Shown: positions 5,408 to 52,358, numbered from the stretch's first letter. The stretch: 64,000 bases of DNA from a virus (IMGVR_UViG_3300008110_010000:8199-72198); one strand, 5' to 3'. Notes: generated from the letters alone by a model not told the origin. Program-made: numbers and translations.

Positions 5408-7282
5408 TTATATTTTTGGTATTCCTCTGTTATGTGCTAAAATTCCATTAGCAAAAAAGTTATGATTATTTTTAATATCCTGTAAATTATAAACTAGAGT
5501 GGTTTCTTCTATCATGTTTATGTTCACAATTTTTGAGCTCCCCTTTAATAACTTTAAACAGTCTCCAATCTCTATCTTACCGATTTTAGATTCTATAGTA
5601 TACAGTTTATTAGATAGATTATTATCGAATGAAGACCATCCTTTATCTTCAACATATACTGGGTGATCTATGGTACATTTTAAAAATTCACCATTCTCTA
5701 ATTCATACTCAACAATTCGGTCCACTTTTTTACTATAAACAGCATTTACTGTATTGGCCTCAATATTATTTGATAGCATGTTAAGTGTCAGTACAGAATC
5801 ACCAGCAATAATATCCTCTATATTTTTTGTAACACCTTCCGAGATGGTTATTTTCGTGCCTGCAACGAAACATGGTGCATTGTGTGTTACGAATGAATTG
5901 ACAGGAGTTGATCCTGCTATTATGTAGGTGTCAGTATCCTCAACATCAATTTCAACTAAGCTGAAATTGTTTTCATTAATTATTAATATTTCAGAATTTG
6001 TGACCTGCGCTAATGATCCATCATAATCTACTAAGTAATCTGTCGTTGTTTTTATGTTTACAGATTGTTTCCATACGATCGAGTCCATTCCCTCGTCATA
6101 AACTAAGAAAGATTTATGAACCGACGTATAAATTGAATCCTCGTTATTATTTACTGTTATATTAGATAATGTTTTATTCAACAATTCTTTACTATTTTTA
6201 TATATAACAGTAGATGTCGTTAGATTAGATTCCGGTGGTAAGGTGTTTCCTGATATTTGCCAAGTTGGATATGTGAAGTCGTCTTCCGTTAAATCTGTTC
6301 CCCCTATATAATAAGATTTTATTTCTTCCCCGACAGAAATGTTCCCTATTTCTACCTCAGTATCATCAGATTTAATTATTAAATGCGTGTTTAAAATGCC
6401 ATCAATTATACCATCATATTTAATAAAATTTGTTGCAAACTCGTAATAATGTTTATTGTCTATCTTATTAATGTATTGGGCTTCATTATAAATTGATTCG
6501 ACAGGTAATTCAAATGCCGCACTTTCCTGAAATTGTCCTACGTGAATTAGGGACAGATCACCTCCGTAAATAATCGAGAAAGTTCTCACTGTGGAAACTT
6601 TATTATCTGAAACGGTTTGTGAACTTATGTGATATTTTTGTATTACGTTATTTTCTGTTGCCTTTTCGCTGATGAATACTCCCCATCGGCTTTGGTCTGT
6701 ATCTTCAGTGGATTCGCTGCCTATTTTATAAAAATCTATAAGGGAATGTTCCGCATCGCTTATGTTTTTTATTAAGCAATCTGGCAAATTTCCCGAATTA
6801 AAATCCCTAGAAATCGTATCGTATTGTCCGAGTGAGGATGAATGATAAAACTCCGCAACGCTATCCTGCTCATTATAATCACAGAATAGCCTAAGTGTGT
6901 TTAATGTTCCCTTAGCATACTCGCTATCAAAAATGGCTGATTCGTCATACGCCATTCTCAGAACGAATAAGTCTGAAGCATCCTCAACAGGAGTCGGGTA
7001 TATTCTGTTTGATTGCTCTTTTATCTCCTTAAATTCTGTGATAAATGGAGCGTTCGATGTCAATGATTCGGAAAGTTTATCGACTATATACTGATGTATG
7101 TTCGGCTTATGTACTACCGTTACTCTTGTGATGTTATTGCTCTCTAAAACCGAGATAAGGTCGTTAAAATCCAGATAGACTAAATTATTAGTCGAAATAG
7201 TTGTGTCTGTATTTACTTCCAATAGTCTTAAATTGCCAACGCTATCCTCAATAAAATCCGCGGAAAAAAAGGTTCCTTTCAT
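5408..7282 (-). CDS. large protein with C-terminal Hint (intein/BIL-like) autoprocessing domain
   Basis: C-terminal ~150 aa carry Hint blocks: APCFVAGTKI (block A Cys), TIDHPVYV (T-x-x-H), VYNLQDIKNNHNFFANGILAHN (blocks F/G ending HN). Only six residues (RGIPKI) follow HN and there is no +1 Cys/Ser/Thr, so it looks BIL/Hog-like rather than a canonical intein. Confidence 0.6.
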   Translation of the reverse strand: MKGTFFSADFIEDSVGNLRLLEVNTDTTISTNNLVYLDFNDLISVLESNNITRVTVVHKPNIHQYIVDKLSESLTSNAPFITEFKEIKEQSNRIYPTPVEDASDLFVLRMAYDESAIFDSEYAKGTLNTLRLFCDYNEQDSVAEFYHSSSLGQYDTISRDFNSGNLPDCLIKNISDAEHSLIDFYKIGSESTEDTDQSRWGVFISEKATENNVIQKYHISSQTVSDNKVSTVRTFSIIYGGDLSLIHVGQFQESAAFELPVESIYNEAQYINKIDNKHYYEFATNFIKYDGIIDGILNTHLIIKSDDTEVEIGNISVGEEIKSYYIGGTDLTEDDFTYPTWQISGNTLPPESNLTTSTVIYKNSKELLNKTLSNITVNNNEDSIYTSVHKSFLVYDEGMDSIVWKQSVNIKTTTDYLVDYDGSLAQVTNSEILIINENNFSLVEIDVEDTDTYIIAGSTPVNSFVTHNAPCFVAGTKITISEGVTKNIEDIIAGDSVLTLNMLSNNIEANTVNAVYSKKVDRIVEYELENGEFLKCTIDHPVYVEDKGWSSFDNNLSNKLYTIESKIGKIEIGDCLKLLKGSSKIVNINMIEETTLVYNLQDIKNNHNFFANGILAHNRGIPKI

Positions 7283-16327: not shown

Positions 16328-17474
16328 ACTCTAATAAATAATCTCCAATGTCTAGATTTCTTATAGAATCCATCATTTTTAAAAAATTGGAAGATTTTTT
16401 TTCTAAATTCCCATCTTTTTTATTTTCTATCTCGTACATAAATCTATTTCTGTCGCCATCTCCCAATTTGTAGATTTGCTCCATTGCAAGATCCTTCAGC
16501 TTTGGGTGTAAACAAGATATGTGTAAGTAATTGGGGCTATAGACAAAATTATATTCAATTTGTTCACCGGAAAAAAACTCTCTAAAATTCCACACATTAC
16601 AAACATTCAAAACACTTATTGTCTGGGTTATAGTAATTTGTAATTTTTCTTTTTTCAGTTTTAAAAAATTATCATACACAACTTCCCATTTTGAAGGATA
16701 TCTTATATAATCATTCCTATTTCCAACGTCGTCTATAGAAAGCTGTAGTTTTACCTCCCGAAATTCTCTTAACAGCTCTAAAAACCTGTCTGGTAAATTT
16801 GTACAGTTTATGTTATATACCAGCTTTATATTTTTTGATTTGTCTAGAGAAATCAACTTCTCCAAAAAGTAAAAATGCTCCTTTATCAACGTTGGTTCTC
16901 CCCCGTTGATGTAAATTTCCTCCAATTCGCTAGAATGCTTTAATAATTCATCATACCATTCTTTGTTTTTAAACCAATCGCTTTTATAATCTTCATAGTT
17001 GTAATGATCGTCTCCGAACGTGGACGGAAATCTTTTAACATCTTCTATCCACTTGCTACTTGACATCGGGTTGCATGTTAAACACTTTATGTTACAAACA
17101 TTACCGAGTCTTAATTCGATAAACTTAAGATGTATATTTGGGAGTTTTTCGCTTATACTTATTTTATTGAGATATTTAGCATTTTCTTCATCTCTTTTAC
17201 TCTTGAATCCGTTTTCTTCTATCCTGTAACAACCTATACATTCGATAGGTTTCTCATTATTCATCATCTTTCTTCTAATTTCTGTGAAAGAATCAGAATT
17301 CATAATGTCTTCTATGCTATCCTTACCTAGGGTTAATACTCTATTTTTAGTTTTGGAGAAACAAACCCCATTTTCAAAATTAGCAATACAACAAGGTGAC
17401 ACCAGCCCGTTAGGATGAGTTGCTAAATGCGTAAACGGTAACGAACATATAGTTTTTAAATTTGTGTCCACCAT
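16305..17474 (-). CDS. radical SAM enzyme (paralog 1)
   Basis: CNIKCLTC (C-x3-C-x2-C) radical SAM cluster motif. N-terminal Cys-rich CSLPFTHLATHP ... PCC region is shared with paralogs. Confidence 0.6.
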   Translation of the reverse strand: MVDTNLKTICSLPFTHLATHPNGLVSPCCIANFENGVCFSKTKNRVLTLGKDSIEDIMNSDSFTEIRRKMMNNEKPIECIGCYRIEENGFKSKRDEENAKYLNKISISEKLPNIHLKFIELRLGNVCNIKCLTCNPMSSSKWIEDVKRFPSTFGDDHYNYEDYKSDWFKNKEWYDELLKHSSELEEIYINGGEPTLIKEHFYFLEKLISLDKSKNIKLVYNINCTNLPDRFLELLREFREVKLQLSIDDVGNRNDYIRYPSKWEVVYDNFLKLKKEKLQITITQTISVLNVCNVWNFREFFSGEQIEYNFVYSPNYLHISCLHPKLKDLAMEQIYKLGDGDRNRFMYEIENKKDGNLEKKSSNFLKMMDSIRNLDIGDYLLEYENCDLL

Positions 17475-18793
17475 TCTAATAATTTTTTGTTTTGTCCTAG
17501 AATATTCTCAAATGTTAATGATCCATTTAAACCGTCCTTTCTGAACTCTGCTATTCTTATCATGTTTTCTTTCCCTCTCTTTCTGCCCTCTTTATAATCT
17601 GGATACGATTCTTCGAAAGTTTTTTTGGTTTTTAAATCTTCTAAAGCCTCCACATAAATTTGGGTTTTCGATGTAACCCTTGGCTTAATGTAATCTAGGG
17701 TATCGTCTATAATTTCTTCGAGGATGGACCTAGGTATTGACAATGGAGACATAAGAACAGAGGAATCGAAAGAAAAAGTTGTTTTTATATAGGTTACTAC
17801 ATTTAATTCCACTGCACGATCGAATAATTCTTTTATAGACAGTAGGCCTGGAAGAGTTATTGTAAGATCAAAAACCATTCCATGATCGCCGTATAAATCG
17901 TTTAGAAAAAGACCTCCCTTAAAATTATCTAGCCACTTTTCCCACACTATTCCAGTTCTGATAAATTCAACAATTTTTCCAGTTCCATCTATACTTGCAC
18001 ACAGATTTACCCTTTTAAAATGAGGCAGAAAATCATATAGATTCATTCCTTTATATGATACCCTGCTTAAATTTGTGTTGTATCTTATTATAACATTCTT
18101 GGATTGATTATTATCAACCAAATACTTCATGATATCCCAATGAATGTCCCACATCAATGGTTCACCACCTACCCAATATATTTCTTCTATTCTATTCTCT
18201 TTCACTGCTTCCCAAAGTTCGTTTTCAGTAACTTCTTTCTGGAATTTTTTAAATTTTTCTTGATTTTCTTTTTTATAAAATGGCTCGGTTTCTAAATTAA
18301 TGTTGCCCATTATTTTTCTTTCCGCCTCCCACTGTGAACTTAACAAGTCGCCACACATTCTACATTTAAAATTACACAGATTACTTATCCGATAGTCATA
18401 TGATATTGGTTTCATGTGAGTGTAACCATCATCTTCCGTTTTTTCGAATATCTCGTCTATTTTGTGGGGAAAAAGTGTATTGGTGAAATAACCTTTGTAT
18501 GTGTAAAGATTTAGAATTTGATCGTTACAAACCTGACATTGTGGAATTGACTCTCCGGACATTATTCTTTTTCTAATGTTTTTCATATAATCACTATTCC
18601 AATGATCCTCCAGCGAAACTGGTTTAAAATGTGAGTTATCGTCAGGATTTTCAGAATCTATGTACTGTTTAATATAGTTTGCCTTTTCCCTACTTGCACA
18701 ACATAATCTTCTTTCCCCCTGTGGGGAAAGATATGTGTGTGTCCACGGTGCTGTACAAAAAAATTCATTTCCATCCGAAGGTTTTATTCTCAT
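17456..18793 (-). CDS. radical SAM enzyme (paralog 2)
   Basis: CNFKCRMC motif. N-terminal FCTAPWTHTYLSPQGERRLCC is similar to paralog 1. Confidence 0.6.
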   Translation of the reverse strand: MRIKPSDGNEFFCTAPWTHTYLSPQGERRLCCASREKANYIKQYIDSENPDDNSHFKPVSLEDHWNSDYMKNIRKRIMSGESIPQCQVCNDQILNLYTYKGYFTNTLFPHKIDEIFEKTEDDGYTHMKPISYDYRISNLCNFKCRMCGDLLSSQWEAERKIMGNINLETEPFYKKENQEKFKKFQKEVTENELWEAVKENRIEEIYWVGGEPLMWDIHWDIMKYLVDNNQSKNVIIRYNTNLSRVSYKGMNLYDFLPHFKRVNLCASIDGTGKIVEFIRTGIVWEKWLDNFKGGLFLNDLYGDHGMVFDLTITLPGLLSIKELFDRAVELNVVTYIKTTFSFDSSVLMSPLSIPRSILEEIIDDTLDYIKPRVTSKTQIYVEALEDLKTKKTFEESYPDYKEGRKRGKENMIRIAEFRKDGLNGSLTFENILGQNKKLLEWWTQI

Positions 18794-19710
18794 ATTAATC
18801 TGCTAGATTTTATTATATTCTGCGTATAGAGATCACCCCTTCCGTTTGAAATCCATTCATACAACAATTCTGCCCATAATTTGTGCGATTTGGGTGTTGG
18901 ATGTACACCATATAATCTTTCCTCCAACGGTATCTGTTTTATATAATTTAAAAATGAATTTGATGGCTTGTCTTTCATCAGAAAATTGGATTCTGGTACA
19001 TGGTCCCATTTTAATTTACTCATACGGTATAGATCCTCCCCCCAAATACCTTCAACATATTTGAAAGAATCTATCCATTTCATAATATTTAAGTCTATAA
19101 ATTTTCTTTCCATTTTATAGATATGATGTTCCTCAGGTAAAGCATTGAACAAATAACATGGAATTCCGTACTTATCGCAAAACGTACGTATTTCAAAATT
19201 GTAGTTTATGAAATCGTACGCTCCTTCATAGTCATTTTGAACAACCGATAAATACCACTTAAAGAATTCCCTCATTCCATATTCCTCTTTATTGAAATCT
19301 CCGTTACTGTTTAGAGTTTTTCGGTATATTTTATTATGAGTATTGAAAAAAAATTCCTTTCTAACTATAGAGGTCCATCCAATGACTACAATGATGTCAT
19401 CTGGAGTTTTATTAGGGACAATGTAGTTTTCAAGTAGCCAGTTTAAAAGTGTTTCAAAAATCCATTTGTTACCTACTGCAGGCTTGGCTAAATTTATAAC
19501 CTCTTTTGCCCCTATTAATTCTTTTAAATATGTTGGCCAAATTCTTTCAATCCTATATTGATCGTTTTTTGCGTCAGTATCTTCTTCTATTATCCCGTTA
19601 AATTTATTTATTTGGTGAGGCTTTGATGGAGCTTCCAAAAACTGTGGGTCCACAATTTCACTACCATATGTAAAGCTATCTCCGCACACAACTAATTTCA
19701 TTTCACTCAT
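18790..19710 (-). CDS. SGNH/GDSL-like hydrolase
   Basis: LVVCGDSFTYGSE block I motif. Confidence 0.45.
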   Translation of the reverse strand: MSEMKLVVCGDSFTYGSEIVDPQFLEAPSKPHQINKFNGIIEEDTDAKNDQYRIERIWPTYLKELIGAKEVINLAKPAVGNKWIFETLLNWLLENYIVPNKTPDDIIVVIGWTSIVRKEFFFNTHNKIYRKTLNSNGDFNKEEYGMREFFKWYLSVVQNDYEGAYDFINYNFEIRTFCDKYGIPCYLFNALPEEHHIYKMERKFIDLNIMKWIDSFKYVEGIWGEDLYRMSKLKWDHVPESNFLMKDKPSNSFLNYIKQIPLEERLYGVHPTPKSHKLWAELLYEWISNGRGDLYTQNIIKSSRLI

Positions 19711-21262
19711 CTTTAATATATTTTAGCATTTCATCCTGGATATCGGGTTCGATGTAATCCTGAGATCCTGGATTGCTATTTTGAGGATCTAATACCCATC
19801 CCTCTTTTTTTGCGGTTTCTATCACATCGTCGACATATTTATTAGATTTAGCATCGTCACCATCAACCATTCCTATTTCAAGGGGCTCTATTTTTGTTTC
19901 AGGTATCGAATCGAACCATTCTGATAACATCGGGAATGATTCTTTAAAATTCCTATTTCTTCTTATGTCATATTGAATATAAAAAGATTTAAAATCTCTT
20001 TCTCTAGATTCAATAGATGATGTAAATCTATGCCCAGTTTCAACTTCTCTTATGTAAGCAATCATTCTGATTATTCCATCTCTCTCAATATCTAGTAAAT
20101 CAGAAATATTCTTACTTAGCCATCCCTCTATATGATTTGCTCGTTCAATTCTTATGTCTTGCGGTAGTGTAACTATAGACTGAAAGCTTGGAAACCTTAA
20201 TATATTAAAAGAACAAATCGGGAAATGCTTGCCAAATTTTTTCTTCATTTTAATTACCTCATCCATAAATTCAGTAAGACTAAACAGACACAAAGAATTT
20301 ATAGTCATCATTACGTTTAGGGATGCCAATTTACCTTCTTCACAAACCCTGTACATATTTTTAAGCCATTTTTCCCAGATTAATCCATATCTGATATACT
20401 CAGCTTGCTTCCCTGTTGCTTCGCATGATGTGTAGAGATGAAACGTTTTAAAGCTGTGTGTCGACTTAATAAGTTCTTCCAAGAGTTCGTCTTTCTGTCC
20501 TAGATTGGAGTTAACTGCAAATTCCACACTACAATCCTTATTGGTTTCCCACCATTTCATCAGTTTCCAGAAATCTTGAGACATTGTTGGTTCACCTCCT
20601 GTTACTCTCAATTCTCTTAAAGAATATTGAAGCTCTCCCTCCCACCATTTCCAAAATGCTTCGATGTATGGATTTCCGATATTTTTTTTACCGTATGGGA
20701 GAGAGTGCGAACCATCATGCTGGAAAGCAGCTGCACCATCACTTACTAAATTCTGATATGGGCCGAACTTTTTTATATCATTTTGCCAGGTTGTAGAAAA
20801 TGAAGAATTGCAGTAAGAGCATGCAAAGTTACAATTGGGATCGAATGCAATTTCTAATGTTTTTAGATCCACGTCTTGCTGCCATCCGAGTTTGTTCTTG
20901 GCATCTTTTAGTTCTTCATCGGTGTAAATAACAGATTTATAAACCCGATCAGAAACTTTGTCGCTTCCCATGTCCTCTATTTTCCAGCAATACTCGCATT
21001 CTTTAGGTCTTTCTCCCTCCAGCATTTGTTTTCTGACCAATTTTTTATAGCTAGTGTTGTGTATTGCTTTATAACTTTGCGCAACTTCTGCGAGGGGTAT
21101 TTTATGAGCTGGGGGGTGATGGCAACTAGCTGTAGTTCCGTTTCCTAACCAGATTGTTGCGTTATACCATTTAGCACCACAGAAGGAAGGGGAAACAGAG
21201 TTTATCGCTCTGTCCCTATATTCTTGGTAGCTCTCCTCTCCTTTTTTTGCAAATATTCCCAT
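19703..21262 (-). CDS. radical SAM enzyme (paralog 3)
   Basis: CNFACSYC motif. N-terminal FCGAKW ... SCHHPPAHKIPL is shared with paralog 4. Confidence 0.6.
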   Translation of the reverse strand: MGIFAKKGEESYQEYRDRAINSVSPSFCGAKWYNATIWLGNGTTASCHHPPAHKIPLAEVAQSYKAIHNTSYKKLVRKQMLEGERPKECEYCWKIEDMGSDKVSDRVYKSVIYTDEELKDAKNKLGWQQDVDLKTLEIAFDPNCNFACSYCNSSFSTTWQNDIKKFGPYQNLVSDGAAAFQHDGSHSLPYGKKNIGNPYIEAFWKWWEGELQYSLRELRVTGGEPTMSQDFWKLMKWWETNKDCSVEFAVNSNLGQKDELLEELIKSTHSFKTFHLYTSCEATGKQAEYIRYGLIWEKWLKNMYRVCEEGKLASLNVMMTINSLCLFSLTEFMDEVIKMKKKFGKHFPICSFNILRFPSFQSIVTLPQDIRIERANHIEGWLSKNISDLLDIERDGIIRMIAYIREVETGHRFTSSIESRERDFKSFYIQYDIRRNRNFKESFPMLSEWFDSIPETKIEPLEIGMVDGDDAKSNKYVDDVIETAKKEGWVLDPQNSNPGSQDYIEPDIQDEMLKYIKDE

Positions 21263-21263
21263 G

Positions 21264-21917
21264 TTAAATTATTTTGGCGCTAGGCGCTATTTTATTGAAT
21301 TCGTTGATCGAATGGCTAGAGTATTCTGGATCTTCAAATATAATTCCATGATTTCCGTTCCCACTTTTATCGAATGTTTTAAATTTTGAATTTCTTTCAA
21401 AATCAAAAAACGAGTACAGCTTTTTTGATTTCTCGTCAAAGGAATCGACGATTTCATCGAAAACTGCAATTTTATAAATATCCCCTTTGAACCAGCATTC
21501 ATAAGATCCACTGTATGGATTTATAGATCCTATAAAAATATTCTTGTCTGAATAAGATTCAATTGGACCGGTTTCTTTTTCACCTTTTAAAATTCCATCG
21601 ATGTATATTTTAACAGAATCTGAAACTGTCACCATGACTTCCATTCTTTTATGTATATCATCAACAGGTATCCAGATATCGTTATATTGATAGGGTTTAG
21701 TGTACCAAGAGAATTTAACACCATTTGGTTTCTGTAAAAATATTCCCATATGGTATCCTATCCTTCCTACAATCAACGACTCATCCTCTGCAAACTCAGA
21801 GAGTTGAAAATCCCCATAAAGAGAAAAATTCCCCTCCAGATTTTCAAAATTCTTTGTGTTCGTATTATTTTTAGAATTGTTTGGGATGTAATATGCTTTC
21901 TTTTCGAATCTCATCAA
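21264..21917 (-). CDS. hypothetical protein
   Basis: 217-aa ORF with no motif recognised. Confidence 0.3.
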   Translation of the reverse strand: MMRFEKKAYYIPNNSKNNTNTKNFENLEGNFSLYGDFQLSEFAEDESLIVGRIGYHMGIFLQKPNGVKFSWYTKPYQYNDIWIPVDDIHKRMEVMVTVSDSVKIYIDGILKGEKETGPIESYSDKNIFIGSINPYSGSYECWFKGDIYKIAVFDEIVDSFDEKSKKLYSFFDFERNSKFKTFDKSGNGNHGIIFEDPEYSSHSINEFNKIAPSAKII

Positions 21918-23296
21918 ATTATTTTTTTATAAAATTCCTCAAATTCTGGAAAAACCTTCAAAAAATTGGTGCCTCTTCTTTTATCGTGATTGTCTACAAA
22001 AATTCGGAAATCCCTCCTGTTCTGTAATAAGGTCTCTTCAGGTTCTTCCGTTACCATCCAATCATGAATTCTATTTAACTTATTGATTTCGATGTCGGTA
22101 TATCCAAATCCATCAAGACCAACTCTTATTTGTTCGTAGAAGTCCATTAGCTGAGCTTGCTCTTTTACTACTGCAGACCATTCCTTATCTAATATTTTCA
22201 CTGTCTGGTGTGGAGGCCACCTTAAATAGGACGAGTCTAACATAATAGAGGAGCCATAGTATCTGTGAGGGTTGTGATATTCTTCCTTAAGCTTTACCAC
22301 ATTTTCTATTAACTTTTCATAATTAGGAACGGAAAGTGCGTTATATGTGGACATTATTATTACGGTCAGAGGCTCAATTTCTTTCAATAGAAAATTAACT
22401 CTATCCCACCATTGGTTGAAGACCAAACCATGTCTAATGTATTCAGCTTGTTCTCCCCAGGTATCTGCACTGGTAAATAGTATCACCTCGTTTACCCTGT
22501 TCTCGTCTATCATTCTTTTTAATTTTTCTACCATTAGATTAAAAAGCTTATCTGGTGCTCCTAAATTCGTATTGAGAGAAAAATTTAAATTTCTGTTTGG
22601 GTTTTTTTCATCCAAGATATAATCAAAAACCTTAAAAGTGTCTTTAGACAGAAGAGGTTCCCCTCCCGTTATTCTAAAAGTATGAAGATCTCTGTATAAA
22701 TCAGGCCACCATTTCCAGAAAGCCTCAACGTATGGGTTCTCCTGATTATGCGGTCTTGGGATCATGTTCAGATCCTTCAAATATTCTAAATTGTTAAATC
22801 TAAAGCTGGTAGGATATGGTCCATGCTGCTCTATTTCTTGAACCCATTGGGAAGAGAACGACGGTCCACAATACGAGCATTTAAAATTACAGTGATTACT
22901 AAAAGCTACCTCAACATACTTAGGATTGTAATTTTCTTTCCACCCTAAATCTTTTATTTCATTAAAATATGGGGCAGACCAGGGTTCAGAAGATTTATAA
23001 ATTCTATCGGAAAATGCATTTGATGTATCTTCTATATTCCAGCAATAATCGCATTCATCTGGTCTTTTACCATGAAGCATTTTTCTTCTCTGCTGCTTTT
23101 TATAAACTGTATTATGTAGAGCAGATGGGTTTTTTTCTAACTCTGATAGTGGGATATGATGCGTGCCTGGATGGTGACACGAATGTGTTTGTCCCATTTG
23201 TAAATGAAGTGTTACTTGAGTCCATTTTGCTAAACAAAAGCCACATCCAACATCGTTTAATTTATTTCTAGTTTTGTCGAAAAATTCGTTTAGCAT
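21914..23296 (-). CDS. radical SAM enzyme (paralog 4)
   Basis: CNFKCSYC motif. N-terminal FCLAKW ... SCHHPGTHHIPL is clearly paralogous to 19703..21262. Confidence 0.6.
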   Translation of the reverse strand: MLNEFFDKTRNKLNDVGCGFCLAKWTQVTLHLQMGQTHSCHHPGTHHIPLSELEKNPSALHNTVYKKQQRRKMLHGKRPDECDYCWNIEDTSNAFSDRIYKSSEPWSAPYFNEIKDLGWKENYNPKYVEVAFSNHCNFKCSYCGPSFSSQWVQEIEQHGPYPTSFRFNNLEYLKDLNMIPRPHNQENPYVEAFWKWWPDLYRDLHTFRITGGEPLLSKDTFKVFDYILDEKNPNRNLNFSLNTNLGAPDKLFNLMVEKLKRMIDENRVNEVILFTSADTWGEQAEYIRHGLVFNQWWDRVNFLLKEIEPLTVIIMSTYNALSVPNYEKLIENVVKLKEEYHNPHRYYGSSIMLDSSYLRWPPHQTVKILDKEWSAVVKEQAQLMDFYEQIRVGLDGFGYTDIEINKLNRIHDWMVTEEPEETLLQNRRDFRIFVDNHDKRRGTNFLKVFPEFEEFYKKII

Positions 23297-29334: not shown

Positions 29335-30123
29335 ATGGAAAAGAAGCAAAAAATATTGACTATAGGGGACATTCACGGGAGGGATTACTGGAAATTCATT
29401 ACCCATGGTAGTAGTTACGAATTTGAGCAGTGGGTAACCATGGTGAATGCTGGGGCTAATCCCATGGACGATTTGTTTAAAGAGGATTATCCTTATTTTT
29501 CCGCAGACAAGATAGTTTTTGTTGGTGATTACGTTGACAGTTTCACAATTAGTAATGTTGAGATCAAGAAAAATCTTGAGGATATCATTTTCTTTAAAAA
29601 GACACTACCAAATAAGGTAGTGCTTCTCTGGGGAAATCACGATGTTCAGTATTTTATTCCCAATCAAATCTGTAGCGGATATCGTCCAGAGGCAAGATGG
29701 GATCTACAGATTCTTTTTGAGAGCAATAAAGATCTTTTCCAGATGGCATATCACGAGGGTGATTATCTTTGGACTCATGCTGGTTTATTAAAGCCAGTAT
29801 TAAGTGATCTTTTAAAACATCATCCGGATCTAAAGGAACTTGGTAATGAGGCAGCTATTTTAAACGAGGCATTTAAAATGGAACTCCCCCAAATTTTTCA
29901 GGTGGACGGTGCCAGTGGGGGATGGAGCATGTACGGGGGACCGCTCTGGGTTAGGCCAAATCAGCTTCAAGAATATGGAGTAGACCTGCATCAGATAGTA
30001 GGACACACCCCGGTTTCAGAATTGAAGAATTTAAAAAATAAAAGAGACTATAACATCTGGCTCACAGATTATTTAGAATATAGCTTGGGCGAAGGACTTG
30101 ATCCCTTAACTTTAGAAATATGA
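29335..30123 (+). CDS. calcineurin-like metallophosphatase (Ser/Thr-phosphatase / ApaH-like)
   Basis: LTIGDIHGR, VFVGDYVDS and LWGNHD match metallophosphoesterase motifs I-III. Confidence 0.65.
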   Translation: MEKKQKILTIGDIHGRDYWKFITHGSSYEFEQWVTMVNAGANPMDDLFKEDYPYFSADKIVFVGDYVDSFTISNVEIKKNLEDIIFFKKTLPNKVVLLWGNHDVQYFIPNQICSGYRPEARWDLQILFESNKDLFQMAYHEGDYLWTHAGLLKPVLSDLLKHHPDLKELGNEAAILNEAFKMELPQIFQVDGASGGWSMYGGPLWVRPNQLQEYGVDLHQIVGHTPVSELKNLKNKRDYNIWLTDYLEYSLGEGLDPLTLEI

Positions 30124-30405: not shown

Positions 30406-31011
30406 ATGAAAGTGATATTTTTAGACAATGACGGAGTAATTTGCCTTTCCAATAATTGGGGATCACGACACAAGAAGCAAAAAAAATGGGGTGGTAGGAA
30501 ACTATCTATGACTACTCGTGAAATGCCCCTTGAATATAGATTTGATAATTTTGATAAAAAAGCAATTAAAATCTTAAATGAAATTCTAGAACAAACTGGA
30601 GCTGAAATTGTAGTGAGCTCCGATTGGAGATTGTATGCGGATTTAGAGGAGTTGGGGAAATACTACACATCCCAGGGTATTATCAAAAATCCTATAGGAG
30701 TAACTGAAATATTTCACCATAAAAATTGGGTAGAAGAAGGTAGAATACCCCCAGATTTTGATTGGTACAGAATCGAAGATAGGGAGCAAGAAAGGCACTT
30801 CGAAATTCTGGAATGGCTAAAGAAGAATCCGGAGGTTACTCAATGGGTAGCTGTGGATGATTTACACATGGGGATTCACGTCGAAGCAAGTTCTTATGGA
30901 GCATTCGATAGAGATTGGGGATTGAAAAATTTTGTATGGACTCCCAGAGCCTGGGAAGGAATTAAACAGTCAGGAATCAAAAAAAAGATTTTAAAATTTT
31001 TAAACAACTAA
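30406..31011 (+). CDS. HAD-like phosphatase
   Basis: MKVIFLDNDGVI carries the D-x-D-G-(T/V) HAD motif I. Confidence 0.4.
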   Translation: MKVIFLDNDGVICLSNNWGSRHKKQKKWGGRKLSMTTREMPLEYRFDNFDKKAIKILNEILEQTGAEIVVSSDWRLYADLEELGKYYTSQGIIKNPIGVTEIFHHKNWVEEGRIPPDFDWYRIEDREQERHFEILEWLKKNPEVTQWVAVDDLHMGIHVEASSYGAFDRDWGLKNFVWTPRAWEGIKQSGIKKKILKFLNN

Positions 31012-33603: not shown

Positions 33604-33985
33604 GGGGGTGTATTTGGCACTTGACAGACATTGGTAGTTCTTTGAGATGATGCAGGCCGAGTTAGTATTGGAAACTCGTTAATCACCTATGCAAACAATA
33701 AACGACGTAGAATTATCTACAATGACCTTCGAAGACGCTATGTCTTTCGTTGGTGCTGATTACGCAATAGCTGCCTAATCCCTCCCGCACACATCGTGGG
33801 GCTTAAAATAGAATGTGAACCCAGGTGGAATATGACTGAACCCGAAATCGAGTCATCTGAATTTGGTAGTTTAATCAGCCAACTATAAACTACATATTTT
33901 GTTTGTAAAGAAAAACAAGCTAAGCCTGTGAATGAGTTTCTTTTAACAGATGGACTGGACACCGGTTCGATTCCGGTCACCTCCA
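33604..33985 (+). ncRNA. ssrA: tmRNA (SsrA-like)
   Basis: 5' GGGGGTG pairs with 3' CACCTCC through a G3:U70 wobble, followed by discriminator A. The tRNA-like T-arm is GGTTCGATTCCGG. An internal tag frame ends ...GADYAIAA-TAA (33764-33778), like bacterial ...YALAA tags. The 3' CCA is not encoded. Confidence 0.7.
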
Positions 33986-34001
33986 CAAAAATTAATTTAA
34001 T

Positions 34002-35649: not shown

Positions 35650-35724
35650 TGCGGGGTAGAGCAGTGGTAGCTCGCTGGGCTCATAACCCAGAAGTCGTGG
35701 GTTCGAATCCCACCCCCGCTACCA
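35650..35724 (+). tRNA. tRNA-Met(CAT), initiator-like, CCA encoded
   Basis: Cloverleaf with anticodon CAT in loop CTCATAA. The anticodon stem has three consecutive G:C pairs (CTGGG/CCCAG) and an unpaired 1:72 (T:T), both initiator features. The 3' ACCA is encoded. Confidence 0.8.
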
Positions 35725-36667: not shown

Positions 36668-37315
36668 ATGGCAAATGGAGTATACAAAATTACAGAAGAA
36701 TTTGAAAAATCACTCGAAAGCTATACAGGAGCTCCACATGTTGTAACTTTAGACAATCAGAGTAACGGACTTTTTCTTTCCCTATATTATGAAAATTACG
36801 TTAAAAAGAGCATAGAAAAAGGAAGTATAAAAATTCCAAGTCGAACTTATCCTTCAGTTCCTTGCGAGATTATTCATGCTGGCCTTAAAGTAGAGTTTGA
36901 GCATGTGAAAGGTAAGACGATTAAAGGTGCATACCAACTAAAAGGGAGCAAGGTTTGGGATTCTGCATTGTGTTTTACCTATAATATGTATAAGAAAAAT
37001 ACCCATATGTGCGTTTCTTTTACTGGACCATTTAAGCATTTTAAGTTGTCTAAAGGTGGAGCAATATTAACAGATGATCATGAAGCATATCTTTGGTTTA
37101 AAAGAGCTAGATATAGTGGCAGAAGAGAATGTTCTTATCATGACGATCACTTTGATATGCTGGGATGGAATTTTTATATGATGCCAGAATTAGCAGCAAG
37201 GGGTTTACTCATGATGGGACAATTTTATGATCCTACAACGGGAAAACCTAAAAACAATCCAGATCTGGAACTACCATATCCAGATTTATCAAAATTTGAT
37301 ATTTATAAAAAATGA
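36668..37315 (+). CDS. hypothetical protein
   Basis: 215-aa ORF with no motif recognised. Confidence 0.3.
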   Translation: MANGVYKITEEFEKSLESYTGAPHVVTLDNQSNGLFLSLYYENYVKKSIEKGSIKIPSRTYPSVPCEIIHAGLKVEFEHVKGKTIKGAYQLKGSKVWDSALCFTYNMYKKNTHMCVSFTGPFKHFKLSKGGAILTDDHEAYLWFKRARYSGRRECSYHDDHFDMLGWNFYMMPELAARGLLMMGQFYDPTTGKPKNNPDLELPYPDLSKFDIYKK

Positions 37316-39495
37316 GTAAAAAATTATCTATAATAATTCCCTCACTAAACAGGGAAAAATTACTTATAAGTTCTATCAATAGCATAGTAGAAATTTTTAA
37401 TTCATTCAACTTTCAAGATTATGATGTACATGCTATAGTAAATGGGTCAAACAAAAATACAACAGAAAAAATTAGAGAGAATATTTTTTTACATCATCAT
37501 GAAAAAAAATTGAATCCTGGAATAGCGAGAAATATAGGAATTGAAAAAAGCGACTCTGAGTGGATTTGGTTTATTGACGACGACGATGAAATAGTAGGTG
37601 AAAACATATCAAAAGTAATAGATTTTTTATACGACAAAAATGGTAATCATGGATTCGATTTAATAGCTCATTCTTTAAAAAATAAATACATTCCGGAAGA
37701 TAATAAGAGATCTCTATTGGAAAATGTTTGTTTTTTTAAAGAAAAACAGGAGGCATTCAATTACATTTTCAAAAGAGATTTAATAAAAAAGCATAATATA
37801 TTATTTTCCGACGGATTACACGAGGATATCAGATACGTAACAGAACTGATAATAAATTCCTCCATCATTAAAATATTTGATTTTTTCCTGTATAAAAAAA
37901 TTAACCGGGATGATTCGATAACTAAAAATCTCAATCCATCTAGAATAGATGGATATTTACTAGCAATCAGCGAGATTCAATCACTAGATAGCGATGAAAT
38001 TTCTTCGATGTCTAATGGAATAGTGACACAGTGTCTAGGAACTATCCTATATCTAATAAACAAATCCCAAAATAAGTTGGAGCTACTAGAATATCTGGAC
38101 AGCAAATTCACATTTTATCTAAGATCAAAAATAACCGAAACGTATAGTGAAAAAGATACTAATTTCAAATACGCTGTTTCTCTTTACATTAATAAGAAAG
38201 ACAATCTAGTATTTCTTGAAAGATTAAACGAATGCTTTTCTAGCTATCTCTCTTGTAGAGATCTAAAAAACTCAATATTTCTTGGTCCGAAAGAAATAAT
38301 AGGATGCTGTAAAAGATTCTTTTATAATGGTAAGATGAAGGGTGACATCGTTTTAATGTCGGAATCAATAGATGTTAATTTAGATTCTATACTTAAAAGA
38401 AAGGCTGAGGTTGAAGATGGGATAAATTCACAGACATATGAACCTTGTGAGGGGTGCCCTTATATAGAAAGATATAGTAGATTAGAAAATAAAAAAATAA
38501 ACTACATAAGCTTAGAAAATTTCACTTATTGCAACATGCGTTGTACTTATTGTTCTCCTAAATATTATGGGGGTAAAGAAGCAGTATACAACACTCATGA
38601 TATAATTAGTCAATTAATAGATGGTGAATATCTTGACGATAAAGTACACGTTGTTTGGGGAGGGGGAGAGCCAACATTACAAAGGGAATTTGGGGAAATA
38701 ACAGAGAAACTAATAAACATAGAAAATGTCTATAAGATAAGAGTTCTTACAAACAGTCTAAGATTTTCAAACGATCTTTATAACCTAGCATCGAATGATA
38801 AAATAAGGATAGTTACTAGTATAGATGCAGGAACTCAAGATGTATTTAAAAATATCAGGGGAAAAGGAGAAATTTTAACAGTTTTAGAGAACCTAAAAAA
38901 ATATACAGAGCAAACCAAGGATCCAGAGAATCTAACTTTAAAATACATTCTAACTGAACAAAACTATCATTCCAATCAGTTAGAACAATTTGTAAAAACT
39001 ATAAAAGAATTTGGATTTGAAAACAATTTTGTCCAAATAAGTTGTAATTTTTTATATGATCATCTGGGTGATGAGATAATATTTTCAATATACGAATTAG
39101 CAGCTAGACTATTAAATAATGGATTTAAGTTTGTTTATTTTGATGATTTAATCCGTGACAGATTAGCTATAAGTGAGGATATTGCGGATAAAGTAATCAA
39201 TTATTTGTCGGAAAAATACCTCTATCACGATGATATAATTTCTTATAAGAGTAATAAACGGGTAGTTCTTTGGGGAGATGGATACCAATCTAGATGGATA
39301 AAAAACAGCACAACCTTTGGAAAATCTAATAAAATAAGGGGAATCGTTTCCGATATAAATGGATTTAACAATTTGAATTTAAATGTGGGTTTTACAGTAT
39401 CCCCTGCCGCAATCCAACAATTACCAGACATATTTAAGGAAATTAAGAAGGAAAAAGATGTCTATAATAAATTGAAATTCCACATATTTCTATAA
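37312..39495 (+). CDS. fusion protein: N-terminal GT2-family glycosyltransferase + C-terminal radical SAM domain
   Basis: LSIIIPSLNREKLL and FIDDDDE (GT2 DxD) in the first ~250 aa. C-terminal half has FTYCNMRCTYC (C-x3-C-x2-C) and a VVWGGGEPTL glycine-rich SAM motif. Confidence 0.6.
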   Translation: MSKKLSIIIPSLNREKLLISSINSIVEIFNSFNFQDYDVHAIVNGSNKNTTEKIRENIFLHHHEKKLNPGIARNIGIEKSDSEWIWFIDDDDEIVGENISKVIDFLYDKNGNHGFDLIAHSLKNKYIPEDNKRSLLENVCFFKEKQEAFNYIFKRDLIKKHNILFSDGLHEDIRYVTELIINSSIIKIFDFFLYKKINRDDSITKNLNPSRIDGYLLAISEIQSLDSDEISSMSNGIVTQCLGTILYLINKSQNKLELLEYLDSKFTFYLRSKITETYSEKDTNFKYAVSLYINKKDNLVFLERLNECFSSYLSCRDLKNSIFLGPKEIIGCCKRFFYNGKMKGDIVLMSESIDVNLDSILKRKAEVEDGINSQTYEPCEGCPYIERYSRLENKKINYISLENFTYCNMRCTYCSPKYYGGKEAVYNTHDIISQLIDGEYLDDKVHVVWGGGEPTLQREFGEITEKLINIENVYKIRVLTNSLRFSNDLYNLASNDKIRIVTSIDAGTQDVFKNIRGKGEILTVLENLKKYTEQTKDPENLTLKYILTEQNYHSNQLEQFVKTIKEFGFENNFVQISCNFLYDHLGDEIIFSIYELAARLLNNGFKFVYFDDLIRDRLAISEDIADKVINYLSEKYLYHDDIISYKSNKRVVLWGDGYQSRWIKNSTTFGKSNKIRGIVSDINGFNNLNLNVGFTVSPAAIQQLPDIFKEIKKEKDVYNKLKFHIFL

Positions 39496-49053: not shown

Positions 49054-49124
49054 CGATACTAACGTAAAACTTGTACACTAACATAATCCTTGTTAGCGTA
49101 CAAAAAGTTCGTTAGCAGTCAAAT

Positions 49125-49211
49125 AGAGAGGTGTCCGAGAGGCTGATGGAGCACGCTTGGAAAGCGTGTTTACGAGCGATCGTAACAAGGGTTCGAATCC
49201 CTTTCTCTCTG
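49125..49211 (+). tRNA. tRNA-Ser(GGA)
   Basis: Acceptor AGAGAGG/TCTCTCT, anticodon stem CACGC/GCGTG with loop TTGGAAA, long variable arm, T-loop TTCGAAT. Confidence 0.7.
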
Positions 49212-49212
49212 C

Positions 49213-49324
49213 ACATGCCGGTGTGGCGGAATGATGACTTGGCCAGTCATAGACGTCCCTGATCTAGAGTGGGGGTGTAACCGAAAAGGACACCGTGAAG
49301 GTAAACAACCCTTCCACCGGCACC
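49213..49324 (+). ncRNA. non-canonical tRNA-like element (~112 nt)
   Basis: A perfect 7-bp terminal helix GCCGGTG...CACCGGC is followed by A-CC. It contains a perfect 5-bp hairpin ATGAC-TTGGCCA-GTCAT with anticodon-like loop (GGC). The D- and T-regions do not fit a standard cloverleaf and the T-loop-like loop has 8 nt. Confidence 0.3.
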
Positions 49325-49328
49325 TTTT

Positions 49329-49414
49329 GCCTGGGTGTTGGAATAGGTAGACAAGACAGACTTAAAATCTGTTGGACTGCAAAGTCCGTGCGGGTTCGAT
49401 TCCCGCCCCAGGTA
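49329..49414 (+). tRNA. tRNA-Leu(TAA)
   Basis: Acceptor GCCTGGG/CCCAGGT (G1:U72), anticodon stem ACAGA/TCTGT with loop CTTAAAA, long variable arm with GGACT/AGTCC hairpin, T-loop TTCGATT. Confidence 0.75.
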
Positions 49415-49511
49415 CAAACCAAAAACAGCGTCGAGCCACATTTTGCGTCGTTCTTGGTCTAGATCTTCTCAACGGGAGAGGTGGCCGCGACCCCGAGGAG
49501 ATCACCAAATT

Positions 49512-50726: not shown

Positions 50727-51665
50727 TTGTTATGTATGAAAACTATTTGGGTTTTAGAGGACATAAAAAAAGATGGAGAATTTTTCCTTCATGAGGTTGA
50801 GCTCGTTTGTCTGATTGCATCAGTTTCGAATTGGAAGGTGTTATATCCGGAATGTGAAACTGTAATTTATGTGTGTCCCTCAGTTTACAATTATCTAGAA
50901 AAAATTGGAATTTTAAATTTATGGGACAGTGTAGAAACTAATCCTTTATCAAAAAGTGATAATATTAATAGAAGAGCTTTCTGGACTGCTTCCAAGCTGA
51001 AGTGTATGAAAAACATAGAAGCTCCTTTCATAATGATGGATTGTGATTTATATTTCAAAAGAAAAACATTTGAAATCAAGGACTTATCCAAATACGATAT
51101 AATAGTTAATCAGATCGAAGAAGGAGTAAAGGTTTATCCCAGCATCAAAGACAAAATACTAAATCAGATAGTAAATGAATATCCGATTAAATTCGGATGG
51201 AAAAACACACATTCAACCAACGTTTCATTCCTTTATATAAATAATGAAGATTTTAGAATGGAATATGCTAACATCTCATTGGAATGGATGGAAATCCTTT
51301 CGCAAAGATTTTGGGACGATCCTGATTTGAACGGAAAATATATGGTTTTTTGTGAACAGAAGATTTTAAAAGAGCTTGGGGATTTAAGAGTTCAAAAGAT
51401 AGCAGCTCTTTCTCCACAATTCTTTTTCGGAGAAGAAAATACAATTCTGAATATCCCTGATGAATATGGAACTTTTTCAATGAATGACAGTCTAGATTAT
51501 TCTCATCTCCATGCGAATAAAAGATTTGTTCTCAAGGACAGGAGTCTTTTTTTAGATATAAGAAGCGATATTATAGAATCCATGGTAAATCTAAATAGTT
51601 TTACTATGAAACTTTTGCATCAGATATTACTTAAAAATAAAGAAATAATTGGCCCAGTGGCGTAA
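50727..51665 (+). CDS. hypothetical protein
   Basis: 312-aa ORF that ends 17 nt into the downstream tRNA-Leu (starts 51649). Confidence 0.35.
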   Translation: MLCMKTIWVLEDIKKDGEFFLHEVELVCLIASVSNWKVLYPECETVIYVCPSVYNYLEKIGILNLWDSVETNPLSKSDNINRRAFWTASKLKCMKNIEAPFIMMDCDLYFKRKTFEIKDLSKYDIIVNQIEEGVKVYPSIKDKILNQIVNEYPIKFGWKNTHSTNVSFLYINNEDFRMEYANISLEWMEILSQRFWDDPDLNGKYMVFCEQKILKELGDLRVQKIAALSPQFFFGEENTILNIPDEYGTFSMNDSLDYSHLHANKRFVLKDRSLFLDIRSDIIESMVNLNSFTMKLLHQILLKNKEIIGPVA

Positions 51666-51732
51666 TTGGTAGCCGCACTAGACTTAGGATCTAGTGTCGA
51701 AAGACGTGGGGGTTCGAGTCCCTCCTGGGTCA
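51649..51732 (+). tRNA. tRNA-Leu(TAG)
   Basis: Acceptor GGCCCAG/CTGGGTC, anticodon stem CTAGA/TCTAG with loop CTTAGGA, long variable arm, T-loop TTCGAGT. Confidence 0.75.
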
Positions 51733-51740
51733 CACAGAAA

Positions 51741-52358
51741 ATGATAGTTCACTTTATTTGGGTTGGGGATCGAAAAATTCCTCAGCATTTTTTGTCTAAT
51801 CTGGAAAAGTTTAAATCCTTAAATCCCTCTGAAGAAATTCTGGAGTGGGACGATGAGCATTTAATCCCATTAATTAAATCTTACGGCAGGGAAGAACTTT
51901 ATTTTTCTTCTGGTATTTTCCACAAGTTACAAATTGCTAGATACACTGTTTTAGATTACTATGGAGGAATTTACATAGACTATGATCTGAATTGGAAAGT
52001 CTCAGTCAAAGAAGGACTAGGATTAAGAACAGAAAGGGATCTGTGTTTAATTAAAAGAAGATCCCTATATTTCTACAAGAAAGAAGAATCAATCTTAAAG
52101 ATTGATCTATTAGACGATTATGTAATTTTTGCTAAGCCTGGAATTACAAACGGGTTTATAGATTATAGCCTGAACAGGTTCCTAGATAAATCTAGAATCA
52201 AAGAATGCCAAACTGAACCTTTCAGCGTGTATTCTTTGACTGAATGGGTTCACGATTCACAATTCGATTTTGATTGTTTCGATCATACTGAGATATATGA
52301 CAGCGGGGAATGTAAGCTAGCATATCATGATAACAAAAAAACCTGGGAGGGAAAATAA
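51741..52358 (+). CDS. glycosyltransferase with sugar-binding DXD region (Gly_transf_sug-like)
   Basis: MIVHFIWVGDRKIP and GGIYIDYDL match the HFIW(I/V)G ... GGIY-x-D-x-D signature. Start trimmed from 51666 to the ATG at 51741 because the upstream 25 codons are the tRNA-Leu. Confidence 0.5.
   Translation: MIVHFIWVGDRKIPQHFLSNLEKFKSLNPSEEILEWDDEHLIPLIKSYGREELYFSSGIFHKLQIARYTVLDYYGGIYIDYDLNWKVSVKEGLGLRTERDLCLIKRRSLYFYKKEESILKIDLLDDYVIFAKPGITNGFIDYSLNRFLDKSRIKECQTEPFSVYSLTEWVHDSQFDFDCFDHTEIYDSGECKLAYHDNKKTWEGK

Follow-up and report, generated by a model that had tools for sequence, protein, structure and literature searches.

A conserved RNA family in phage tRNA arrays with apparent descent from tRNA-Leu and a self-complementary open loop

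The window analysed in this study is a stretch of 64,000 nucleotides (nt) of viral DNA (IMGVR_UViG_3300008110_010000:8199-72198). Its tRNA array comprises 21 tRNAs, including a further tRNA-Met at 35650, and holds the element that is the subject of this work, 108 nt long and located at 49217-49324 on the plus strand (coordinates read directly). The upstream neighbour is tRNA-Ser(gga) at 49125-49212 and the downstream neighbour is tRNA-Leu(taa) at 49329-49415; a gap of 4 nt separates the element from each of them. An initial annotation had described a tRNA-like element of about 112 nt starting at 49213. The element itself is real, but that start takes in the leader ACAT (49213-49216, plus strand), a 4-nt spacer between tRNA-Ser(gga) and the element, and the true start is 49217. 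In relatives the leader is nearly always AUAU, independent of the upstream neighbour. Comparative analysis showed that the element represents a new and conserved family of predicted RNAs in phage tRNA arrays, with a fold supported by covariation. The description as tRNA-like was borne out, since the tRNA frame is kept and the element matches tRNA-Leu by covariance model.

All parts of the element described below lie on the plus strand. The terminal helix, P1, is the equivalent of an acceptor stem and has seven base pairs (bp): the 5' strand GCCGGUG (49217-49223) pairs perfectly with CACCGGC (49315-49321), as had been proposed, and is 100% paired in 47 sequences. U8, G9, the D-stem 5' strand G10 C11 G12 (49226-28) and GAAUG, with equivalents of A14/A15, follow at 49224-49233. 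This segment is invariant in the alignment, its string UG-GCGG-AAU is typical of tRNA-Leu and the covariance model aligns it to the tRNA-Leu D arm. A hairpin, P2 (49234-49250), is inserted in the D-loop and replaces G18G19; it is formed by ATGAC (49234-38) and GTCAT (49246-50) around the loop TTGGCCA (49239-45), all present as first described, and in RNA the loop UUGGCCA includes the palindrome UGGCCA. Eight of nine P2 pairs covary. The next segment (49251-49257) contains AGA, the D-stem 3' strand CGU (49254-56) and position 26 (49257). A fourth D-stem pair, G9-C26, was predicted by RNAalifold and was dropped because position 26 is C, U, A or G in relatives; the D stem is therefore taken to have 3 bp. 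The D stem of tRNA-Leu also has 3 bp.

The equivalent of the anticodon arm (49258-49272) is degenerate, with CC (49258-59) and GG (49271-72), 100% paired, closing an open loop of 11 nt. Within this loop lies the self-complementary hexamer UCUAGA (49263-49268), the proposed kissing site, whose palindrome is kept through five hexamers and whose central bases covary. The equivalent of the variable arm (49274-49294) consists of a GGUGU/ACACC stem, an AA bulge and a CC-GAAAA-GG tip with a GNRA-like loop, and its basal stem covaries (GC, GU, AU, CG). It is followed at 49295-49314 by GU (U48 equivalent) and by the T-arm equivalent GAAGG / UAAACAAC / CCUUC, in which five of five pairs covary; GAAGG (49297-301) and CCTTC (49310-14) enclose the 8-nt loop already recognised as a candidate T-loop, which is without UUC. 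The last segment (49315-49324) holds the P1 3' strand CACCGGC, a discriminator-like A (49322) and CC (49323-24), in agreement with the A-CC tail of the initial annotation; ACC is invariant in 26 sequences found without requiring ACC. Standard D and T arms are lacking in the element, also as stated there.

Searches for relatives yielded 47 distinct homologues of 93-123 nt, present as a single copy per locus. All 47 are located on uncultured-phage or metagenome contigs, inside tRNA arrays and on the tRNA strand, with a tRNA within 1.5 kilobases (kb) of each (contigs of up to 251 kb). The spacing to neighbouring tRNAs is often 4-10 nt, and the flanking tRNAs differ by phage (Ser/Leu, Ala/Met, Arg/Met, Thr/Ser). 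The first relatives came from contigs that encode a homologue of the upstream protein (58-88% identity), which provided near-identical copies and one diverged copy; in the latter, a 9-bp stem with an 11-nt loop occurs in place of the putative anticodon hairpin, so that the stem is kept and the loop and its GGC are not. Further members were obtained by pattern scans of IMG/VR and JGI metagenomes with invariant strings, and a scan anchored on the 3' half alone added 21 more diverged sequences. Part of the family was fetched with patterns demanding CCGAAA or CCGGCACC. Other searches were unproductive: one exact pattern gave 12 matches in GTDB genomes, all of them chance matches without the 5' GCCGGUGUGGC and the remainder of the element; the first 14-nt pattern scan of IMG/VR gave chance matches only; neighbour-protein scans of IMG/VR gave almost nothing (contig L119 is without tRNAs); and no tRNA array was recovered from the contigs of the diverged neighbour proteins P0024, P0027 and P0017.

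Across related arrays, the core of the element without P2 is 83-99% identical to the window copy, and the true tRNAs of the same arrays are 63-100% identical. Related arrays usually also hold tRNA-Leu(taa) or tRNA-Ala(tgc), hence the element fills no tRNA gap. Many of them place it directly beside a normal tRNA-Ala(tgc), which removes the argument, put forward for an Ala-like tRNA, that Ala is missing from the array of the window.

Folded as a single sequence, the element is modestly better than its shuffles (z = -2.4), and the comparative data are the real evidence for a fold beyond chance. Alignment of the 47 sequences to the model revealed that 95.0% of cells are paired, compared with 35-55% in slid controls. 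Double-change cells numbered 157 against 48 in shuffles, a value reached by none of 500 shuffles, and 17 pairs show double changes. An unfitted MAFFT alignment of the first 26 sequences gave a similar result for seven helices (95.3% paired, 17 pairs changed on both sides; 0/500 shuffles reaching the observed value, slid controls 32-56%). RNAalifold independently recovered P1, the D-like stem, CC/GG, the variable-arm stem and the last hairpin. Covariation is found in P1, P2, the variable-arm stem and the T-like stem; two P1 pairs covary, with U-A/A-U in 11 sequences and G-C/U-A in two. The variable-arm tip CCGAAAUGG occurred in nine of nine true matches of a search without that requirement, and its family consensus, C-GAAA(U/A)-G, is GNRA-like with a conservation partly imposed by the search patterns. 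Among the options raised initially, that of a distinct structured RNA is thus upheld by 47 homologues sharing one covariation-supported fold. Two further contacts were considered and rejected: a long-range GUCC/GGAC helix is ruled out by GGCC at that place in L198, and complementarity between the T-loop and the P2 loop (CCAA/UUGG) holds in some members only and not in the window copy.

P2 is the most informative part of the element with respect to the first interpretation, in which this hairpin served as the anticodon arm and GGC as an Ala-like anticodon. Analysis of the relatives revealed P2 loops of 7 nt (UUGGCCA), (G)UGUACA or GUAC, 11 nt (GAAUUCGAAUA) and GACG. The hairpin is absent in L273 and L279 (93 nt), where GAAUUUAGA alone is found in the D-loop and UUU stands in place of G18G19. 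Since both loop and length of the hairpin differ among relatives, GGC is not a conserved anticodon; the hairpin aligns inside the D-loop of tRNA-Leu, and the body is Leu-like (class II). The suggested Ala tRNA with anticodon GGC was rejected on the variable loop and on the tRNA-Ala that adjoins the element in other phages. The option of a tRNA with an insertion, on the other hand, was accurate, with the hairpin as the insertion in the D-loop; the two members without P2 fit this reading.

For comparison with tRNAs, a covariance model of the element family (R1) was used. Against the adjacent tRNA-Leu(UAA), R1 gave a whole-length match of 31.4 bits (expectation value, E, about 1e-6), in which P2 appears as a 29-nt insertion opposite 3 nt of the tRNA. 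Among the window tRNAs, searched with filters off, Leu(UAA) ranked highest with this score, followed by Leu(UAG) with 20.5 and Ser(GCU) with 15.9, and the rest were below 10 bits. The best match of R1 in cyanophage S-SSM7 was a tRNA-Leu (28 bits), and that in T4 was also a tRNA-Leu (22.5 bits), followed by Ser (20.7). As R1 matches tRNA-Leu genes of class II over their full length, in three phages that are not related to each other, the family is a tRNA-Leu derivative. The common frame can also be seen by eye: acceptor, U8, G9, GCG-G-AAU...AGA-CGU, position 26, U, variable arm, GU, T stem, acceptor and A.

Examination of the individual tRNA features revealed which of them are kept. P1 directly adjoins the 5-bp T-like stem and ends in a single-stranded A plus CC; in the D arm, the stem GCG/CGU and the A14/A15-type bases are present and G18G19 are absent. 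The T-like loop has the consensus UARNCARN (8 nt), or UGAAAAU (7 nt) in some members, against UUCRANY (T54-Psi55-C56) in tRNAs. In the anticodon arm only CC/GG is conserved; the loop is 11-15 nt long, the hexamer varies and no stable stem between D stem and variable arm was found in any variant. The hexamer begins 3, 4 or 5 nt from the closing CC depending on subfamily, hence there is no fixed anticodon register. Overall, our comparison of homologues shows an element derived from tRNA-Leu. Its D-loop has received an insertion, its anticodon arm is disabled, and compensatory changes have preserved the palindrome of the open loop.

The hexamer of the open loop was counted in all 47 sequences: UCUAGA occurs in 32, UUCGAA in six, ACUAGU in four, CCUAGG in two and UCCGGA in one, and all of these are perfect palindromes. 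Their cores are CUAG, UCGA or CCGG, flanked by a U-A, A-U or C-G pair. UCUAGA is invariant in the first 26 sequences and the changes appear in more diverged members; in some loops the palindrome is extended to 8-10 nt, for example AUUCUAGAAU and AUACUAGUAU. Among 23 distinct segments aligned by MAFFT, 19 have UA and four have CG in the two adjacent columns at the centre, and in the surrounding columns 20 have C..G and three have U..A. The palindrome columns are 100% complementary with seven double-change cells, which none of 500 shuffles reach, and a palindrome of at least 6 nt occurs in 19 of 21 distinct loops, compared with a shuffle mean of 3.5 and a maximum of 9. The hexamer also differs inside single P2 classes, indicating that the palindrome has switched several times. 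As neighbouring bases cannot pair within one chain, covariation of the adjacent central bases suggests pairing between two copies of the RNA. Covariation of adjacent loop bases between palindromes was used in the same way by Kretsch et al. to support kissing loops seen by cryo-electron microscopy (cryo-EM) in OLE and GOLLD (PMC12286853).

Palindromes were also found in P2. Three P2 loop classes bear palindromes of 6-8 nt (UGGCCA, UGUACA and AUUCGAAU), which are offset from the symmetry axis of the stem, and when the sequences are classed by P2 loop the P2 palindrome never equals the hexamer of the same molecule. Other roles for the hexamer were tried and set aside. TCTAGA as a repeated genomic signal was rejected, as the window has 28 sites without common context, where about 22 are expected by a rough estimate from base composition; pairing with the UCUAGA of the neighbouring RNA at 49458 was rejected because that copy is not conserved.

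Taken together, our analysis suggests that the element is probably a gene for a small stable RNA that originated from a phage class-II tRNA-Leu, no longer decodes and pairs loop-to-loop with itself. With a working anticodon arm lost and a self-complementary loop shown, the RNA probably binds its own copies rather than reading codons. The conserved palindrome points to oligomerisation by symmetric RNA-RNA kissing, giving a putative dimer or oligomer, as in the RNAs ROOL, GOLLD and manA. In the proposed course of events, the element would be transcribed together with the tRNA array and excised by tRNA-processing enzymes, with RNase P acting at G1 and 3' trimming at or after ACC. Two molecules would then join through the palindrome in a symmetric kissing complex of 6-10 bp. 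The second palindrome, in the P2 loop of most subfamilies, and the GNRA-like tip of the variable arm could add homotypic contacts and thereby lead to assemblies above the dimer. By analogy with ROOL, GOLLD and manA, such an assembly may serve as a scaffold for some component of translation or of tRNA metabolism, or keep that component sequestered.

A more far-reaching version of this proposal, which we consider possible and rather doubtful, is that this tRNA descendant of about 110 nt serves as a self-assembling block. L-shaped monomers would be joined by two orthogonal palindromic kissing loops, together with the GNRA-like tip, and so form closed rings or cages, in which the pseudoknotted RNA next to the element (49421-49507) may also take part. 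The element would then be the smallest known member of the "RNA-only assembly" group of phage tRNA islands and the sole one with a traceable origin from tRNA-Leu.

Several observations weigh against self-pairing of the RNA or weaken the support for it. Two members depart from the palindrome (ACUAGG, ACUAGA) and keep only the CUAG core, and the independent palindrome switches are few, perhaps five or six. The AU-rich self-duplexes of 6 bp are weak (-5.5 to -10 kcal/mol by nearest-neighbour energies), and the palindrome could be a DNA-level site for a dimeric protein. A second interface could not be universal, as the GACG class is non-palindromic and two members are without P2. Conservation of CCGAAA and CCGGCACC is partly built in, because the search patterns demanded these strings. 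The D stem and CC/GG barely vary, so both rest on tRNA-Leu homology and not on covariation. Transcription, processing and oligomerisation are all steps that we infer.

Gene finders and family databases did not recognise the element. ARAGORN left it uncalled in the window and at every relative's locus, and the element was still uncalled after deletion of P2 or replacement of P2 by UGG. A search against Rfam 15 returned no match, and the comparison with Rfam models that had been recommended gave no match to tRNA or to a known noncoding RNA family at gathering thresholds or at E<=10 beyond noise; the sole matches at E<=10, SNORD52 (E = 5) and manA (7.7 bits against a gathering threshold of 55.2; E = 6.3 in a 131-nt search), are considered noise. 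The recommended covariation check in related genomes is the one reported above for the 47 homologues. A box C/D or K-turn motif (AUGAUGA...CUGA, with the SNORD52 match) was rejected because neither string is kept in relatives, and a hammerhead-like CUGAUGA/GAAA because it is not conserved and no Rfam ribozyme matches. One long-hairpin member of the family gave no match in GenBank phages. Full-text searches with characteristic strings of the window copy gave unrelated papers only; a catalogue of about 10,000 viral structured RNAs (Fremin et al. 2023) could hold the family unnamed.

An unusual working tRNA would account for the Leu-like body and the discriminator A. As an amber suppressor it would have U33, the anticodon CUA and G37; as a Leu tRNA it would read CUN with the anticodon UAG; and as a four-base decoder it would use UCUA to read UAGA. 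It would be charged by leucyl-tRNA synthetase (LeuRS), which does not read the anticodon. For one subfamily, a drawing with a 7-nt UUCUAGA loop and closing UA/UA pairs is indeed possible, and stop-recoded phages have suppressor tRNAs (bioRxiv 10.1101/2021.08.26.457843). However, the hexamer changes to UUCGAA, UCCGGA, CCUAGG and ACUAGU, hence no anticodon is conserved; its register shifts by 1-2 nt against the stems between subfamilies, there is no 5-bp stem, G18G19 and the T-loop UUC are absent, and ARAGORN rejects the element even with the D-loop repaired. The window has a coding coverage of 88% under the standard code, TAG is used as a stop and ends six of 64 long open reading frames (ORFs), no pairs of long ORFs joined by an in-frame TAG were found in it, and reading TAG as sense brought no gain. 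We regard a decoding role as barely credible. The loss of decoding features, the position beside tRNA-Leu(UAA) in the window and the resemblance of all hexamers to restriction-site-like DNA palindromes would be expected of a decaying tRNA-Leu pseudogene, or of a processing spacer or DNA-level palindromic site without an RNA function of its own. Against this stand compensatory changes in five helices, conservation on a par with working tRNAs in phages that share only 58-65% identity in the neighbouring protein, retention in arrays of quite different gene order and the unremarkable frequency of TCTAGA elsewhere in the window, which make decay or a DNA-only role highly improbable.

A monomeric tRNA mimic is a more serious competitor and still an unlikely one. 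Here the RNA would act as a decoy or sponge, with the open loop as a protein site. Its target would be a protein with affinity for the body of tRNAs, for example a host anticodon nuclease or another defence directed at tRNAs, a synthetase, or an enzyme of RNA repair or processing. A tRNA-shaped core with a disabled anticodon arm suits such a role; the phage has a near-complete tRNA set, a transfer-messenger RNA (tmRNA) and an RNA-repair-type HAD domain, which fits a conflict over tRNAs, and RNA-repair systems are known in jumbo phages, some with tRNA-like partners (PMC7824862). A protein site is, however, not expected to change all six bases and yet stay palindromic. The scanned ORFs of the window gave no Ro/TROVE protein and no RNA ligase or nuclease as a partner, and the Rfam YrlA model does not match the element. 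The mimic role is compatible with a dimer and so is not fully exclusive of a self-pairing tRNA-Leu derivative. It is very unlikely that the element is a distant, shortened member of manA (RF01745), either cis-regulatory or cage-forming, the latter having recently been shown for manA. The Rfam model weakly aligns both ends (P1, "UG", GAAU...hairpin...UA-G, a last hairpin GGUA..A..CC abutting P1, and the aCcuu tail), some manA RNAs adjoin tRNAs, and kissing loops together with a GNRA contact hold manA in 8-, 10- and 60-mers (bioRxiv 10.64898/2026.07.01.735769). Yet the score lies far below gathering, there was no manA match on the loci of 11 other members, and R1 at E<=10 with filters off misses the bona fide manA of P-SSM4 (184 bits with Rfam) and finds tRNA-Leu. 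In addition, the element often lies between tRNAs and not upstream of a gene.

The element is of interest in several respects. The stepwise rebuilding of a tRNA gene can be followed in the family, in which some members lack the D-loop hairpin, hairpins of three kinds occur and the palindrome comes in five kinds. The family belongs to a tRNA-derived gene class missed by standard tRNA finders. An RNA of 108 nt is also easily synthesised, mutated and studied in structure.

The genome that carries the element is read as that of a large uncultured phage. The window is AT-rich, with about 30-35% GC outside the tail-fibre gene and the tRNA region, and its gene products include a tail fibre with collagen repeats, glycosyltransferases, lysins of the CHAP and glucosaminidase types, radical-SAM proteins, GMP reductase and a HAD domain of the RNA-repair type. 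The protein encoded immediately upstream of the tRNA array is found unchanged on metagenome contigs of up to 219 kb, and no cultured phage in GenBank is close. A second conserved structured RNA that is not a tRNA lies at 49421-49507 (plus strand), between tRNA-Leu(taa) and tRNA-Arg(tct), and occurs directly after the main element in some phages. A pseudoknot helix connects the loops of its two hairpins; in ten distinct homologues 95.4% of cells are paired, with 10 double-change pairs (slid controls 28-45%), and it has no match in Rfam at E<=10. In contigs L140, L160, L178, L199 and L154, which have the Ala/Met context, tandem hairpins with the same stem (AUCGUU-GAAAGAA-ACGAU and AUCGUU-AGAUUAA-ACGAU) are found about 55 nt downstream of the element and before tRNA-Met. 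On the other side of the element, the 70-nt spacer between tRNA-Thr and tRNA-Ser(gga) (49055-49124, plus strand) contains a 14-bp inverted repeat flagged as terminator-like on the minus strand.

Other features of the window were also recorded. The tmRNA at 33604-33988 (plus strand) is full-length (79.5 bits) and has an unusually long predicted tag, DVELSTMTFEDAMSFVGADYAIAA. Near it are a calcineurin-like phosphoesterase (29335-30123, plus strand) and a "Swiss Army Knife" RNA-repair HAD domain (30406-31011, plus strand), which may form an RNA-repair module. Successive radical-SAM-like proteins and a glycosyltransferase-radical SAM fusion are encoded at 17456-23296 (minus strand) and 37312-39495 (plus strand), in a large block of sugar-modifying genes, and a protein of 624 amino acids at 5408-7282 (minus strand) has a C-terminus matching Hint/intein-type domains. 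At 50727-52358 (plus strand), a DUF6734 ORF and the next glycosyltransferase ORF are in frame with one TAA between them, and tRNA-Leu(tag) at 51651-51733 spans the junction; read-through is probably not involved, as the gene calls of relatives begin the second gene after tRNA-Leu(tag).

Comparison with known systems places the element nearest, in structure, to class-II tRNA-Leu (RF00005). The two share a 7-bp acceptor continuous with a 5-bp T-type helix, U8, the UG-GCGG-AAU...AGA-CGU D arm, a long variable arm followed by GU, the discriminator A, and the place and spacing inside tRNA arrays. Unlike tRNA-Leu, the element has a hairpin for G18G19, a T-loop that is not UUCRANY and a 2-bp anticodon stem around a palindromic open loop. 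RNA C and RNA D of T4 (species 1 and 2 RNAs) resemble the element as small stable RNAs on the tRNA strand of a phage tRNA cluster, the T4 pair being 119-139 nt long, and what this pair does is still a puzzle (PMC3014915). In RNA C there is a tRNA-type terminal helix and a canonical GGUUCGAAUCC T arm, whereas the element family is without a canonical T arm; R1, run with filters off, gave no match to T4 rnaC/rnaD (L228:1409-1672).

In the dimerisation initiation site (DIS) of human immunodeficiency virus 1 (HIV-1), a loop palindrome of 6 nt flanked by unpaired purines drives a symmetric kissing dimer. The packaging RNA (pRNA) of phi29 is a phage RNA of about 120 nt that multimerises by loop-loop pairing backed by covariation. 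Folds and contexts of both are unrelated to the element. In pRNA (mentioned in PMC12990946) the pairing is between two loops complementary to each other, and the RNA binds the packaging motor, a link not known for the element. YrlA and Y RNAs are similar in size (roughly 110 nt), have a tRNA-mimicking module and occur in some phages (PMC7824862). They differ in that canonical T and D loops are kept and the Ro protein is needed; the YrlA model gave no match on the element or on the relatives' loci examined, and no TROVE domain was found in 49 window ORFs scanned.

The RNA manA is, like the element, a phage-borne multi-hairpin junction of less than 200 nt that is closed by a terminal helix and sometimes lies beside tRNAs. 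In the published alignment (Weinberg 2010, PMC2864571), some manA RNAs are flanked by tRNA genes and the consensus ends with "aCcuu" after the closing helix, like the ACC-UU of the family. The middle of manA is different, and its kissing takes place between different loops (L5-L7', L8-L9') that are not self-complementary. This is a resemblance to the element and not membership; searches with R1 and the manA model gave no support for a tRNA-related origin of manA, a question they did not probe in depth. ROOL and GOLLD, which form cages made of RNA only, are likewise encoded by phages or prophages near tRNA islands, and their symmetric kissing loops carry palindromes that covary at adjacent bases (PMC12286853; PMC12990946). 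Unlike the element, they are about 600-800 nt or more in length, have unrelated folds and are not derived from tRNA, and their oligomers were seen by cryo-EM, whereas here oligomers are deduced from sequences. ROOL and GOLLD are nevertheless closest in concept to the element, and if self-pairing holds, this family would link the puzzle of T4 RNA C and D with the RNA-only assemblies of ROOL, GOLLD and manA.

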